Shown here piece after piece: positions 9,682-15,067 of a DNA stretch of 17,603 nucleotides. Source of the DNA: a virus (lineage: Duplodnaviria; Heunggongvirae; Uroviricota; Caudoviricetes). Location of the stretch: the IMG/VR virus record IMGVR_UViG_2711768068_000022. One strand, 5' to 3'. Each line of letters starts with the position of its first letter. The first letter of the stretch is position 1. Under the pieces are notes generated by a model, which was not told the origin of the DNA, did no database searches, and saw only the letters and a list, made by a program, of their open reading frames with translations. The position numbers were made by a program, and so were the translations under genes.

Positions 9682-10092
9682 TCAGAACGGAATACCGTCA
9701 CCGTAAGGGTCATCGCCTCCCGCTGGTGGCTGATTACCCTGTGTGCCTGTGGTTTTGCGTCTGTTCCCGCCTGGACGTGCCGCGCGGGCACTGATTACGC
9801 TGTCTGCAATAACCTGATACCCCTGCCGTGTTTCCCCGTTCTGTCCGGTCCACTGGCTGATCTGCATGTTACCCGCCACGGTCAGGAGTTCACCTTTGCG
9901 GTGCCTTGCCAGTGCTTCGGCCTGTCTGCCAAATGCCAGGACGGATAACCACATCGTCACCGTTCCGTCATCTGCCTGGCTGCACGGAAGGGGGACCGCC
10001 ATACTCGCCATCGTCATTTGTGTGCCCTTGCTGGTGGTCTTTAACTGCGGGTCAGCCACCAGCCGCCCGTAAGCTGCAATTTGTGCTGTCAT
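9682..10092 (-). CDS. Single-stranded DNA-binding protein (SSB-like)
   Basis: 136-aa ORF; OB-fold-like pattern (GRLVADPQL...W..V..FG..AE...KG..L...G.....W) with Gly/Pro-rich tail ending DGIPF, as in the SSB acidic tail; GAGGTGG SD. Confidence 0.7.
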   Translation of the reverse strand: MTAQIAAYGRLVADPQLKTTSKGTQMTMASMAVPLPCSQADDGTVTMWLSVLAFGRQAEALARHRKGELLTVAGNMQISQWTGQNGETRQGYQVIADSVISARAARPGGNRRKTTGTQGNQPPAGGDDPYGDGIPF

Positions 10093-10101
10093 ATTGCCAC
10101 C

Positions 10102-10416
10102 TCAGTGAAGCGATCCGGCGTTGTTCTTTTTCATCTTTTTCATCTCTTCCATCATTTTTTCAGTGAGCATTACGCACTGAAAACCCATTTTTTTGATGTC
10201 TACGGGTTTCATGCCTTTGTCAGTGGATATCACAGGCAGAATATCCTGATACACATCGCGGTCAGGGTAACTAAGCACACAAAGCGCCCATGATGCCACG
10301 GGTGAGGATCCTTCGTCTGTTTCAACCCACCAGCCTGGTGTAGCTGCGCTTATTTGCAGAATCGTGATCCGTCCGTTGTGCTTGTAAAATTTTTCACCAA
10401 ATTTTGGTTCGCTCAT
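10102..10416 (-). CDS. Hypothetical protein (104 aa)
   Basis: ORF with GAGAGGTGG SD and ATGA overlap with the upstream gene; no motif recognised. Confidence 0.55.
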   Translation of the reverse strand: MSEPKFGEKFYKHNGRITILQISAATPGWWVETDEGSSPVASWALCVLSYPDRDVYQDILPVISTDKGMKPVDIKKMGFQCVMLTEKMMEEMKKMKKNNAGSLH

Positions 10417-10664
10417 GATTCCACCTCTCCGGTTTTAACGTTGATGGTTGTTACCTGTTCCGCTTCGGCAATCTCCCGTTCTGTCAGCGTGGCAAAGTTT
10501 GCCGCCGCTGTGGTCATGAATGCGCTTATCAGTTCGGGATGTGCTTTCGCGTATCCTTCCCCCGCGTGGCGGTCTATCGTTCTGATTGCCACCTTTAAGG
10601 CGTGCTCTGTCATGTCTAACGCTTTATATTTTGGCTCTGTTCTGTCTCTGTGTTTTTGAGTCAT
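10413..10664 (-). CDS. Hypothetical protein (83 aa)
   Basis: Start placed at the internal ATG 10662-10664 with GAGGTGG SD; the longer track ORF (to 10796) would translate through the iteron array. Confidence 0.5.
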   Translation of the reverse strand: MTQKHRDRTEPKYKALDMTEHALKVAIRTIDRHAGEGYAKAHPELISAFMTTAAANFATLTEREIAEAEQVTTINVKTGEVES

Positions 10665-10665
10665 T

Positions 10666-10875
10666 TGCCCACCTCTACCCACTTTTTTCGCCCACTTTTT
10701 ACGTTTTCCCACTTCGTCCAACGTGGGAAATTTGGGATTTATATCATCTTGTTTCATAGGTATTTTTTTAGTGCCCACTTTTTGGGATATATGCACGTGG
10801 GAAAGTGGGTAATTTTGTTAAAATTCCGTTAAATCGCCCACCTTTCCCACTTTTAATGCCCACTTTTTACAGTGG
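10666..10875. repeat. Iteron array with central AT-rich segment: putative replication origin
   Basis: About 8 direct copies of CCCAC(T/C)TTT plus inverted copies (ACGTGGGAAA, GTGGGAAAGTGGG) around an AT-rich stretch (about 10735-10770); lies at and just past the 3' end of the replication ATPase gene. Confidence 0.7.
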
Positions 10876-12264
10876 TCCTACATCATCACCGTCAATGTAG
10901 ATCACGTCGTCTTTTTCCAGTTTGGCTAACCATCGTTTAAGGTGTTTTGTGTCATACCCCAGCTTTTTCATATCGTCACGTAACAGCGGGATCGTGCACT
11001 TGTCGCCGTGCTGTGTGCGTGAACGTATGCATCCCCATAGCGCGGTATGGTTTTCCGTCTTGTTGCCTGCCTCCTCGATGCGCTCCAGTTCAACGGGAGG
11101 GCGCGGCTTATCCACCACCACCAGCGACGTGATTAACTCCCCGTCAGCGTCGGTAAAAAGCTCCACCACGCGTAAGTCATATGCGGCTTCTTTGAGTTCC
11201 TCCGCGTCCTTCATTTTGGTGCATGAGATAACCAGCGCTTCGCTTCCTGCGTCCTCCCTGCGTATCCGGTATTCAGCATCCAGCGAAGCACGAAATGCAC
11301 TAGAACCGCGCGCGCCTTTCGTCTCATCCTTGCCGGAATGGTGAACCACCAGCACCGTGGCCCCTGTGCGTCGTTTCAGTTCGTCACAACCACGGATAAA
11401 CGCCCCCATATCACGGGAATCATTTTCATCATTACCACCAAAGCAACGCGCCAGCGTATCCAGAATAATCATGCGAACAGGTTTACCCGTTTCCCTCTCC
11501 ACCTGACGGGCAGCGATAACCATTTCATCAACATCAAGCGGGACCGCCGGAAAGATGGGACGGTTTACCAGATACAGATTTTTCACCTGCTCACCGTGCA
11601 CAACCTCCCAGGCTTTTACACGACGCGGAACGCCGATACCGCCTTCACCAACCACATAGAGAACAGCGCCATGCGCCACCCTGCGGCCTCCCCACTGACG
11701 GCCCGTGGAAACGTGACACGCCCACGAACCCGCAAGGAATGATTTATAGGAACCGCTTGCCCCGTATATGCTGCATAGCGACGATGCCGGAATAATCCCC
11801 TTTACCACGTAATCTAATTGCGTGTCGTATCCGGCAGATCCAACGCTCATCGGTAGCGTGGTTTTTCGCTGGTGGTGTTCTTCCCCTGGCTTTTTCCCCC
11901 GCTCCCGTTCCAGATATTCGCGCCAGTTCTCCCGCTTCTGGCTGTGTATCCCTTCGGGGTAATAATTCGCATCAGTTACGCCCGCCGCCGCCAGCTTGTG
12001 CGCAATGGCATTAATATTTGATGGCCTGATGTGGCCTGCCTTGTACAGCCGGACACAATAGCGCCCCTCGTCGATGATTCTCAGGTCTGCCAGTTCATCC
12101 AGTTGATCATCAGCCAGCACAATGGGAGGCACATTATCGCCAGCCAGTCGCCCGTCCTGTTCCTGCCACTGTTTCGCATGTGCCCACGCATCACTACCCG
12201 CAAAAATGATGACTTCGGTCATCTTGTCGTAAGGCTGTTTTTTTAAGTTCGGTGCGCTTTTCAT
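10867..12264 (-). CDS. Replication protein, RecA-fold ATPase (RepA/DnaB-like helicase/primase-associated)
   Basis: 465-aa ORF; deviant Walker A (YGASGSYKS), Walker B-like MIILDT, and VLVVHHSGKD motif typical of RepA/AAA_25-type replication ATPases; ATGA overlap with the upstream ORF. Confidence 0.78.
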   Translation of the reverse strand: MKSAPNLKKQPYDKMTEVIIFAGSDAWAHAKQWQEQDGRLAGDNVPPIVLADDQLDELADLRIIDEGRYCVRLYKAGHIRPSNINAIAHKLAAAGVTDANYYPEGIHSQKRENWREYLERERGKKPGEEHHQRKTTLPMSVGSAGYDTQLDYVVKGIIPASSLCSIYGASGSYKSFLAGSWACHVSTGRQWGGRRVAHGAVLYVVGEGGIGVPRRVKAWEVVHGEQVKNLYLVNRPIFPAVPLDVDEMVIAARQVERETGKPVRMIILDTLARCFGGNDENDSRDMGAFIRGCDELKRRTGATVLVVHHSGKDETKGARGSSAFRASLDAEYRIRREDAGSEALVISCTKMKDAEELKEAAYDLRVVELFTDADGELITSLVVVDKPRPPVELERIEEAGNKTENHTALWGCIRSRTQHGDKCTIPLLRDDMKKLGYDTKHLKRWLAKLEKDDVIYIDGDDVGPL

Positions 12265-12560
12265 TTCTTGCCCCTGAATCCGTTAATCATGGTTTTCAGC
12301 TTCTGGATGTTTGCCCGTGCCCTGGCGTTGCTGGTGGGCACGTTATGCGGCGCGGTCTGTACCAGAGAAAAATCACGCCGGAACTGATAAACAGGCATCA
12401 CGCAATCATATTCGTAACCTTCACGGCGGTAAGTTACGCACCGTCCCGCCACGCCCTTAATCATTACCGTGCCGCCGTACTGGTCGCGGTAAATATCACC
12501 GCGCATAAATTTAGGGTGAGTGTTGCCACTGGCAGTTAAGCCAGAATATTTAAGTTTCAT
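12261..12560 (-). CDS. Hypothetical protein (99 aa)
   Basis: ORF with GGAGAA SD; translationally coupled to the replication ATPase gene. Confidence 0.55.
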   Translation of the reverse strand: MKLKYSGLTASGNTHPKFMRGDIYRDQYGGTVMIKGVAGRCVTYRREGYEYDCVMPVYQFRRDFSLVQTAPHNVPTSNARARANIQKLKTMINGFRGKK

Positions 12561-13404: not shown

Positions 13405-13690
13405 GTGAAAGGCTCCCAGATGAATTTTAAGGAGTCTCGCTACTACGCTGTCAAACATGGTGGCGAGACGTAACAGGGTTGACAGACTGGTCATCTGGAA
13501 ACCAGCGAGCACAAAGGCTCCCCCGTTACGCCCCGCCATAATGCGGGTATGGGTAGGTTTACGGACACAAAAAAACCGCTTATCGGATGTGGGCGGCTGT
13601 CCGCCAGATGTATTCAGGCTGTCAAACCCGGTCGCCATGTGGGCGACGGGGGAAGCATACAGCCCCGTGATAATTTTTTGCAAGCGGTTT

Positions 13691-14248
13691 TTACGCATGA
13701 TGTGACCCCTGACGAATACGGGCGGCGAATACAGCAACACAACCGGACGGGCAACGGCTACGCGCTTCGCGTTCCGTCCAGGCGGTTACGTGGATGATTT
13801 GATGTTCTGACGCGCCAAAGATGATAAAGCGCCAGAGAAAGGCGGTTTGAGAATGTACAAGGGTAGGGATAGTAGCCATGTTGGCAGCCTCCTCAGTGTG
13901 GTTAAGATAACCGCCACCGGAAACGCCAATTTCGCTGGTGGCGGACTGTACAGGGTTGGCGTAACCGGACACTGAAGAAACCGGCGCGGATTGCTCCGCC
14001 CCCGTACAGCCCACCATTGATAAGGTGTGACTATGCGGCACAAAAAAACACGCGGGGCGCGTGTTATGCGCTTCAGTTTTGCCCAGGACGCCAATCCCGG
14101 CACCCGTTTTATGAGGTGCGCGGGAATCATAGCTATTTTCGACACTGGCGATCAACTGGTTTTTTTCTCCGATATTCAGTGCCAGAAAACGCCACACAAA
14201 GGCAGTTTGTGTGTGTACAAGGTGTGGTATATGATTTACAGCAACCAT
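13691..14248 (-). CDS. Hypothetical protein (185 aa) with internal duplication; its C-terminal 62 aa (13691-13879) has its own strong SD and may be translated separately as paralog B
   Basis: ATG 14246-14248 with AGGAG SD and an upstream 5'-UTR hairpin; N-terminus MVAVNHIPHLVHTQTAFVWRF and internal MATIPTLVHSQTAFLWRF (GAGGAG SD) are paralogous. Confidence 0.4.
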   Translation of the reverse strand: MVAVNHIPHLVHTQTAFVWRFLALNIGEKNQLIASVENSYDSRAPHKTGAGIGVLGKTEAHNTRPACFFVPHSHTLSMVGCTGAEQSAPVSSVSGYANPVQSATSEIGVSGGGYLNHTEEAANMATIPTLVHSQTAFLWRFIIFGASEHQIIHVTAWTEREARSRCPSGCVAVFAARIRQGSHHA

Positions 14249-14339
14249 AACGGCTCCTAGTTTACGTTGTTGGTTAGACGCCCTGCATGTGTTGCGAGCA
14301 CTGCGGGGTTTCGTCTTTTCTGTACCTTGCATTAACAAG

Positions 14340-14421
14340 GTGTAAGACACAATGTAAAATAACGGTGTCTTACACGTCAACCCTTCAAAATATTTTTTTT
14401 TCGTGTATATTGTCTTACACC
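14340..14421 (+). promoter_or_regulatory. Operator/promoter region of RHH module 1
   Basis: Perfect 11-bp inverted repeat GTGTAAGACAC (14340-14350) / GTGTCTTACAC (14365-14375), a third half-site TGTCTTACACC (14411-14421), and candidate -35 TTCAAA (14384-14389) / -10 TATATT (14406-14411). Confidence 0.5.
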
Positions 14422-14441
14422 AAAAACATGAGGGGTTAAAC

Positions 14442-14621
14442 ATGGCAACGGGTCCAAAGAATGCAAAATCACAATCTGTAACTGCACGTATTGCCCATGA
14501 AATTATTGAAGGCATGGAGAACGTGAAAGAAGAAGGTGAAAGCACGGGGCAGTTTATAAACGCAGCCATGCGCGGCGAAATCAAACGCCGCCAGCGCCGC
14601 AAGACCAAAGAATCAGAATAA
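14442..14621 (+). CDS. Arc/MetJ-like ribbon-helix-helix DNA-binding protein (59 aa), module 1
   Basis: ATG with GAGGGG SD 6 nt upstream; predicted strand-helix-helix pattern (SVTARIAHEIIEGMENVKEEGESTGQFINAAMRGEI), basic C-terminal tail. Confidence 0.6.
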   Translation: MATGPKNAKSQSVTARIAHEIIEGMENVKEEGESTGQFINAAMRGEIKRRQRRKTKESE

Positions 14622-14625
14622 TCAC

Positions 14626-14670
14626 CATCAGCGCCGTGGCGTGAGGTACTACGGCGCATTGCTTTACAGG
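14626..14670 (+). repeat. Conserved 45-bp intergenic element, copy 1 (hairpin GCGCCG-N15-CGGCGC followed by ATTGCTTTACAGG)
   Basis: Near-identical to 15311-15355 (2 differences) although the flanking coding sequences are diverged. Confidence 0.7.
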
Positions 14671-14678
14671 GCAGTACC

Positions 14679-14906
14679 ATGACCAACAACACACTATCAC
14701 CAATACAAGACACGCAGACGCAAGAAGATGAAATCATTCGGCAAAGGCAGTTAGAAACCTGTGCTCGCCTTGAAGCCGAACTGGCTAATCCTCTGAATAT
14801 CCAACTAATACCGATAGAAATGAAACCTGGACTATTCGCGTTGGAGGCATTTTTAGCAAGCTGCCCACGGCGGCTAAAGTCCCGTAAGAATCGCCCGCCA
14901 GGATGA
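14679..14906 (+). CDS. Hypothetical small protein (75 aa), module 1 second gene
   Basis: ATG 57 nt after the RHH1 stop; weak SD; begins MTN like its counterpart in module 2. Confidence 0.4.
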   Translation: MTNNTLSPIQDTQTQEDEIIRQRQLETCARLEAELANPLNIQLIPIEMKPGLFALEAFLASCPRRLKSRKNRPPG

Positions 14907-15025
14907 GTACACAAAACCGAACTATGAAACGGATTATTCCGTTTCCGGGGCGTTTGTGTGTGTATAAAGAGTAAGCTATGCTCTTTTATAGCCATAATCG
15001 TTACCTCAATTAATGGTTTGGTTAG

Positions 15026-15067
15026 ACGCCCCGTATGTGTTCCCATCACTGCGGGGCGTTGTTTTTT
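15026..15067 (+). terminator. Rho-independent terminator of RHH module 1
   Basis: 8-bp perfect stem ACGCCCCG/CGGGGCGT (15026-15033 / 15052-15059) followed by TTGTTTTTTG. Confidence 0.55.

Follow-up and report, generated by a model that had tools for sequence, protein, structure and literature searches.

A putative replication origin with short, partly opposed iterons directly 3' of rep in an EcCIEDL933-like capsid-forming PICI, and a Rep residue that covaries with one iteron base

The intergenic gap between rep and the 83-aa gene that follows it (positions 10,665..10,866; 40% GC) is very probably the vegetative replication origin of the EcCIEDL933-like capsid-forming PICI (cf-PICI) carried by the 17,603-nt stretch of DNA analysed here (the window), where we infer that replication fires. 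The gap holds a dense cluster of short repeats, and its layout is kept in homologues. The repeats change in concert with the C-terminal domain (CTD) of Rep, a domain for which a winged-helix fold is predicted. What is new here is that one Rep residue predicts one iteron base across ~120 related islands.

Comparison with annotated genomes identifies the window as an EcCIEDL933-like cf-PICI situated between phoQ and roxA. A locus in E. coli JNE132847 is 99.9% identical to the window, and the element annotated there by RefSeq is ~14 kb long with phoQ/roxA flanks. Its gene order is integrase, HTH regulator (AlpA-like), Icd-like, Ash-like, DUF4222, 'helicase RepA family protein', the gap, the 83-aa gene, a 104-aa gene, SSB, PerC, major capsid, prohead protease, portal, head closure, connector, HNH, TerS and TerL. 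All island genes are co-directional on the minus strand. The RefSeq annotation of this 99.9% identical locus contains the gene set that defines capsid-forming PICIs (bioRxiv 10.1101/2025.02.11.637232) and lists no tail or lysis genes; HNH, TerS, TerL, portal, protease and capsid genes, together with the lack of tail and lysis genes, are common to the island and the cf-PICIs. The EDL933 element is described in the supplement of PMC6092414 as 15.5 kb long with a 409-aa integrase, HNH and terL, and the island resembles this EcCIEDL933 prototype in gene set, size class and 409-aa integrase. Origin and Rep are without description in the cf-PICI papers.

Two further genes belong to the surroundings of the putative origin. 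The island-encoded SSB of the replication module lies at 9,682..10,092 (minus strand; Pfam SSB, E=1.4e-15; RefSeq), and the DUF4222 gene at 12,261..12,560 (minus strand; Pfam, RefSeq) overlaps the start of rep. Because a DUF4222 gene is found upstream of rep in every locus examined, whichever the Rep class, its product is a possible replication accessory. Elsewhere on the minus strand (13,456-14,119), Rfam reports two copies of C4 antisense RNA (13,934-14,021 and 13,456-13,543), isrK (14,043-14,119) and the c4-a1b1 target element (13,611-13,660), all above gathering score. These matches lie inside or beside a 452-aa ORF (13,691-15,049) that RefSeq splits into the Icd-like and Ash-like genes, and we take the region to resemble a P1/P7 immI-type antisense immunity module inside a cf-PICI.

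An earlier note on this DNA had counted at least eight direct CCCAC(T/C)TTT repeats in the gap. The strict 9-mer CCCACYTTT matches only six times in the 17.6-kb window, always on the plus strand and always within 10,678-10,867; 0.34 matches would be expected by chance, and none of 200 shuffles gave six or more. The count of eight holds at the level of the core, with direct CCCAC copies at 10,668, 10,678, 10,691, 10,708, 10,774, 10,837, 10,846 and 10,859. The copies at 10,668 (CCCACCTCT) and 10,708 (CCCACTTCG) share only CCCAC(C/T)T with the strict pattern. Inverted GTGGG cores are present at three positions (10,723, 10,797 and 10,805), so that 11 of the 45 GTGGG/CCCAC cores in the window fall within 205 bp (Poisson P ~7e-13). 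The background is 0.40 cores per 205 bp, and the maximum in any other 205-bp stretch is 3. Neither the strict-pattern scan nor the core scan found a second iteron cluster elsewhere in the window. All 11 copies share the same register, A-N-GTGGG, with the consensus AAAA(A/G)GTGGG(C/A)A; the iterons are 9-10 bp long and irregularly spaced, at 9-17 bp.

Followed in the direction of transcription, the gap opens with iteron set 1 (10,837..10,867, minus strand; core scan), three direct copies with GTGGG cores at 10,863-10,859, 10,850-10,846 and 10,841-10,837. The first of them abuts the rep stop codon, and in the alignment the junction TAA-AAAGTGxG is kept in most homologues. The stop had been placed inside the last iteron. 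In fact the A-run of the first iteron takes its initial A from the TAA (10,869-10,867, minus strand), and repeat unit D2 reaches 10,870, so the stop codon overlaps the flank of an iteron and not its GTGGG core; in the direction of transcription this iteron is the first and not the last. Next come AT-rich tract 1 (10,810..10,836; 22% GC by GC count, against 51% for the window) and a pair of inverted iterons (10,797..10,809; GTGGGAAAGTGGG on the plus strand; core scan), a position at which all aligned homologues have an inverted copy.

The inverted pair is followed by an element that is not an iteron, TG(T/C)ATATA (10,788..10,795, minus strand). It was recognised in an alignment of 17 origins from E. 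coli, Salmonella, Enterobacter, Kosakonia, Pantoea, Xenorhabdus, Serratia and Morganella, where it is constant in every iteron class and genus examined and always lies between the inverted and central iterons. A melting nucleus and a host-factor site are possibilities for its role. A one-base difference between the window and JNE132847 falls exactly in this element (TGCATATA in the window, TGTATATA in JNE132847). Beyond it lie the central direct iteron (10,774..10,782, minus strand; strict-pattern scan and alignment) and AT-rich tract 2 (10,728..10,773; 24% GC by GC count), the likeliest DNA-unwinding element. A single inverted iteron (10,716..10,732, plus strand; core GTGGG at 10,723-10,727; core scan) and iteron set 2 (10,668..10,716, minus strand; core scan) complete the array, the latter with four direct copies whose cores are at 10,712-10,708, 10,695-10,691, 10,682-10,678 and 10,672-10,668. 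Each AT-rich tract is bounded by opposed copies, but the outer sets 1 and 2 have the same orientation. Where a single AT-rich core with inverted copies had been described, there are three inverted GTGGG copies and two tracts.

The last iteron of set 2, GAGGTGGG, doubles as the Shine-Dalgarno sequence of the 83-aa gene (10,413..10,664, minus strand), which begins directly after the origin. A longer ORF of 127 aa (10,413-10,796, start at 10,796) was considered for this gene and rejected. The family profile phrog_1231 covers the 83-aa form from end to end (83/83) and gains nothing from the 127-aa ORF, RefSeq annotates the 83-aa form, and the ATG at 10,664, directly after the last iteron, is conserved in aligned homologues; the proposed start at 10,664 is supported by all three.

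We compared three sets of loci, namely 80 from one genome per species, 13 chosen alleles of E. coli, Salmonella and Enterobacter, and 80 from IMG/VR. Absence of the repeats from homologous islands had been named as an outcome that would speak against an origin. Among the 89 non-redundant Enterobacterales loci of the first two sets (one per species and chosen alleles), 81 have some 6-mer at least five times (median 7) in the 240 nt that follow the rep stop, and only 25 of 1,963 control windows from the same loci reach five copies of a 6-mer. The remaining eight loci were rejected as counter-examples, being truncated, frameshifted or decaying islands. In one of them, from E. coli EH01-18-02 (L004, 2400-2800), Rep is frameshifted and truncated inside the CTD and the iterons are gone; unrelated GTCAC-type repeats, GTCACTGTGTGTCACTCTCCGTCACGGTATGTCACC, follow the truncated Rep.

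In homologues, too, the iterons lie directly 3' of rep, and from E. coli to Xenorhabdus, Serratia and Morganella the elements follow one and the same order: three direct copies at the stop codon, an AT-rich spacer, an inverted copy, the class-independent TGTATATA, one direct copy, an AT-rich tract and about four direct copies. A CCCAC in the last rep codons (CCC ACT G), found in many homologues, was considered as a further inverted iteron and rejected, because it stays CCCAC in islands of the GTGAG class, which points to coding constraint.

Several loci depart from this arrangement or extend it. An IMG/VR locus (L136) has an origin deletion in which set 1 runs straight into the end of set 2, the outcome that recombination between direct iterons would give. 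Three others (L140, L144 and L146) combine an N441 Rep with GTGAG next to rep and a distal set in which GTGGG and GTGAG are mixed, a pattern suggestive of recombination within the origin. The same architecture, with a K-S Rep and GTGCGGCA iterons, is present in the 16,971-bp Klebsiella pneumoniae pKp_Goe_795-4 (CP018459.1; L099), deposited as a closed circle and plasmid. This molecule is a cf-PICI-like element and encodes an integrase, a Rep homologue, capsid, adaptor and terminase, as well as a 3.4-kb gene annotated as tail tape measure protein. No typed plasmid replicon was found in it, and it may be an excised, replicating satellite.

An island of E. coli 2013C-3342 (L098, 2264-2550) has in the same slot, between DUF4222 and a small gene plus SSB, a 605-aa P4-alpha-like Rep of SF3 type (D5_N, DUF5906, Pox_D5). 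The gap 3' of this rep contains about ten CTGTTCACC/GGTGAACAG repeats around AT-rich DNA, with TGTTCACC as the iteron, which is presumably the P4 type I iteron; a full-text literature search for the P4 iteron sequence returned nothing relevant. A different Rep with its own iterons in the same slot shows that rep-ori cassettes move as a unit and are exchangeable.

The iteron core differs between lineages, and all copies within an origin change together. A relative island in O157:H7, 91% identical over rep plus ori, has CTCAC where the window has CCCAC, and with it N441/GTGAG specificity as opposed to the H441/GTGGG of the window island. The initial hint was that the motif tracked the sequence just before the invariant RW of the CTD. 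Class predictions for nine alleles were written down before look-up, with eight named and one left open. The named class was correct in 8/8 cases (K-H alleles with GTGGG, K-N alleles with GTGAG), and the open ninth case, a K-G Enterobacter allele, has GTGCG.

A scan of alignment columns, over the last 75 residues in 91 loci and then over the whole of Rep in 59 loci with clear iterons, identified exactly one column, residue 441, that separates GTGGG from GTGAG. Among the 59 clear-iteron loci, 28 combine H or K with GTGGG, 25 combine N with GTGAG, and 6 combine S or G with GTGCG; such locus counts overstate the number of independent events because the loci are phylogenetically related, a problem that the mosaic E. 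coli alleles lessen. In the independent IMG/VR set, counted as distinct CTD-ori combinations, H441 goes with GTGGG in 31/32 and N441 with GTGAG in 26/27 (57/59 together). The CTDs of two loci (L003 and L089) differ only by one V/A exchange and H441N, yet every one of their iterons differs, G against A.

Rep is a mosaic protein. One homologue (L085) is 39% identical to the window Rep in the N-terminal domain (NTD), 67% in the ATPase and 91% in the CTD, and its origin is 84% identical; another (L002) shows 94%, 96% and 86%, with an origin identity of 66%. Across all pairs, origin identity rises with CTD identity (Spearman rho 0.67) and not with NTD identity (rho -0.08), values that are given without P values because the pairs are not independent. 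These patterns support the view that the winged helix of Rep recognises the repeats sequence-specifically. The co-variation itself speaks for Rep-iteron recognition and is compatible with either initiation or regulation by bound Rep.

The gene for this 465-aa putative initiator-helicase occupies 10,867..12,264 on the minus strand (Pfam AAA_25, phrog_2850, RefSeq and structure models), and phrog_2850 matches the protein over its full length. It consists of an N-terminal alpha/beta domain (~1-125), a RecA-fold RepA-type ATPase (~146-383) and a C-terminal winged-helix domain (395-465). Pfam AAA_25 matches residues 146-314 (E=2.8e-44), and a PDB sequence match to RSF1010 RepA (1g8y; E=0.004) aligns across Walker A and B, both present in this AAA_25/RepA core. 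Walker A is atypical (GASGSYKS, residues 168-175, window 11,740-11,763) in that Tyr replaces the usual Gly before Lys, and it is invariant in 47/47 aligned homologues. Pfam found no Rep_3 match in Rep, and neither Pfam nor PHROGs found a primase catalytic domain; Pfam searches with the CTD alone or the NTD alone gave no match. A megablast of rep-ori against the phage collection was also without match, and tblastn in phages returned only distant relatives of the ATPase domain, with no information on CTD or ori.

The full-length model of Rep is only moderately confident (pLDDT 67.5, pTM 0.47). Its top Foldseek matches are mostly meaningless because of the pTM of 0.47, and only those of the core, to RadA/Rad51-type RecA folds, are usable. 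An AlphaFold model of the CTD alone (the last 71 residues; coding region for residues 395-465 at 10,870..11,082, minus strand) has a pLDDT of 88.8 and an H-H-H-beta-beta topology. It matches DtxR/IdeR, MarR/MepR, Fur, LexA and MCM C-terminal winged-helix domains in Foldseek (probability 0.97-0.99, query TM ~0.65, rmsd 2.3-2.9 A), and a winged-helix fold is predicted with confidence for the CTD. Residue 441 (His; codon at 10,942-10,944) is directly before the third helix of the CTD model (442-451), and the invariant K440, R444 and K448 would share a single face of that helix. The NTD (residues 1-125, window 11,890-12,264) is a shared module that recombines independently of motor and CTD; SF3-type PICI and plasmid primases (DUF5906/D5, 'DNA primase family protein') carry it at their N-terminus with 52-75% identity.

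Published PICI origins consist of iteron sets that flank an AT-rich region directly 3' of rep (PMC6092414, PMC9371898). The rep-ori of EcCICFT073 drives plasmid replication, for which both rep and ori are required (PMC6092414). SaPI Reps use a C-terminal WHD to bind iterons, need no ATP to melt the origin and load themselves, and SaPI origins have opposed iterons on either side of an AT-rich region, with at least two per side (PMC9371898). The gap in the window has the corresponding position, with its first iteron abutting the rep stop (10,867-10,869), and the corresponding parts, with three direct copies, four direct copies, a central copy and tracts of 22-24% GC. It is also like the origins of SaPI1, SaPIbov1, SaPI5 and EcCICFT073 in being 3' of rep with short iterons (5-9 bp in those origins), some of them opposed, and it shares with PICI origins the lack of DnaA boxes, none of which was found by a search of the origin region. 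As modelled, the window Rep would resemble PICI Reps as an initiator that is also a helicase and recognises iterons through a C-terminal winged helix. SaPI Rep1 and PriRep5 are SF3 and Rep2 is SF6 (AAA+), whereas the window Rep is of the RecA-fold RSF1010-RepA type (AAA_25) and, unlike the characterised PICI Reps, has no fused or adjacent primase. The cis element is of a known kind, and it differs from the characterised cases in the motor. The iteron sequence AAAAGTGGG was not found in full-text literature searches, and a literature search found no experimental work on this origin or on others served by Reps of this class; the supplements of PMC6092414 contain no iteron list.

Other replicons are similar in part. 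P4 is likewise a satellite with a multidomain initiator-helicase and a C-terminal winged-helix iteron binder, but P4 alpha is a primase with an SF3 helicase and requires a second cis site, crr, whereas the window is without a second cluster. Identity with P4 ori/crr was rejected, as the TGTTCACC iterons differ, the Rep family differs and there is no second site. With RSF1010 and IncQ plasmids the island shares a helicase core homologous to RSF1010 RepA and iterons beside an AT-rich region. In RSF1010 a separate RepC binds iterons of ~20 bp, and ssi hairpins recruit a dedicated primase (RepB'); in the window, by contrast, iteron binder and helicase are predicted to form one fused protein, and the iterons measure 9-10 bp. 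RSF1010 RepA moves 5'-3', and by analogy the same direction is expected of the window Rep. Plasmids of the Rep_3/WH1-WH2 type (pPS10, F, R6K, RK2) also use winged-helix recognition of repeats beside an AT-rich DUE. They have 17-22-bp iterons at a regular spacing of ~22 bp, DnaA boxes and host DnaB loading, whereas the window has 9-17 bp spacing, neither a DnaA box nor, in a search of the origin, an IHF consensus, and an initiator with its own helicase. An iteron-plasmid oriV of Rep_3 type was rejected on account of the short irregular iterons, the absence of a DnaA box and the absence of a Rep_3 initiator.

The alternative that comes closest accepts the repeats as Rep sites and gives them a mainly transcriptional function, in autoregulation or as a roadblock to read-through, with the true origin elsewhere. 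With every island gene pointing the same way, transcription must cross the region; the Shine-Dalgarno sequence of the 83-aa gene is overlapped by the last iteron, and the co-variation speaks for recognition only. We nevertheless consider a purely transcriptional role unlikely: the promoter/terminator scan found no promoter-like or terminator-like site in the region, a true origin elsewhere would be left without an iteron cluster of its own in the window, and partly opposed iterons with AT-rich tracts match experimentally defined PICI origins. A dual origin and regulatory role is compatible with the origin reading and, given that the site is transcribed through and that its last iteron overlaps the ribosome-binding site, is plausible. 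It is far less probable that the iterons are sites for another protein, such as the AlpA-like or Ash-like regulator or the terminase (pac/cos). Short repeats can be operators or terminase sites, and the island does encode HTH regulators and TerS, but the iteron class tracks the Rep CTD even in mosaic islands that differ in other Rep domains and neighbours, the P4-alpha-like Rep allele comes with iterons of its own, and HNH, TerS and TerL are ~6 kb away.

An equally slim chance is left to an RNA or single-strand element in which set 1 pairs with the inverted pair and which would act, for instance, as mRNA stabiliser, attenuator or priming hairpin. The transcript of the region folds better than shuffled sequences (z = -2.9; 1 of 200 shuffles as good) and contains a long predicted stem in which GUGGGAAAGGUGGG pairs with CCCACUUUCCCAC. 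Such a stem, however, follows automatically from inverted copies of one motif, and the pairing leaves both the four-copy direct set and the link to a protein residue unexplained; no Rfam family matches the origin, and the 17-origin alignment revealed no compensatory changes that keep the pairing while breaking the iteron consensus. That the repeats are chance low-complexity sequence, or the coding sequence of the 127-aa ORF, which has a GTG start and covers part of the region, is refuted by the shuffles and the cluster statistics, by the use of the 83-aa form in both family profile and RefSeq, and by homologue substitutions that follow the iteron pattern and not the reading frame. The reading as a replication origin is the best of these because of the PICI-origin position, the design of partly opposed iterons with AT-rich DNA and the absence of another cluster in the window, taken together. 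Position, architecture and context fit published PICI origins and support the earlier note's reading as a likely origin.

In the mechanism that we propose, physical binding, melting, helicase self-loading and origin firing are steps that we infer. Induction would lead to transcription of rep, and the winged helix of the Rep CTD would bind the eleven AAAAGTGGG iterons, with residue 441, positioned where the recognition helix begins, reading the fourth base of GTG-N-G. Because the iterons are opposed around two AT-rich tracts, Rep may assemble on both sides and melt the AT-rich DNA, and it would then load its own hexameric helicase of RecA fold (RSF1010-RepA-type, SF4-like) without a separate loader. 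Host primase and polymerase, together with the island SSB, would finish replication, and the replicated DNA would pass to the island's own terminase and capsids.

The putative origin would give the replication module of cf-PICIs the cis element that it has lacked, since papers on this widespread satellite family cover packaging and not the origin. It also opens to study how an SF4-type helicase, presumably opposite in polarity to the SaPI Reps of SF3 and SF6 type, loads itself at an origin of like design. The part most worth experiment is the residue-441 rule. The natural series H441/N441/S441 provides a testable rule of protein-DNA recognition and presumably orthogonal rep-ori cassettes, which could serve in studies of satellite incompatibility and as compatible replicons. 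We see about an even chance that Enterobacterales PICIs have a third class of self-loading initiator-helicase, with a RecA-fold SF4 motor of RSF1010-RepA type fused to a winged helix, governed by a one-residue code for the fourth base of GTG-N-G (H/K reads G, N reads A, S/G goes with C) in which H-to-N changes give orthogonal replicons. If this is true, a single H-to-N change, with about eleven iterons converted in concert, would give rise to a new orthogonal replicon, and several related islands could share one cell without cross-activation.
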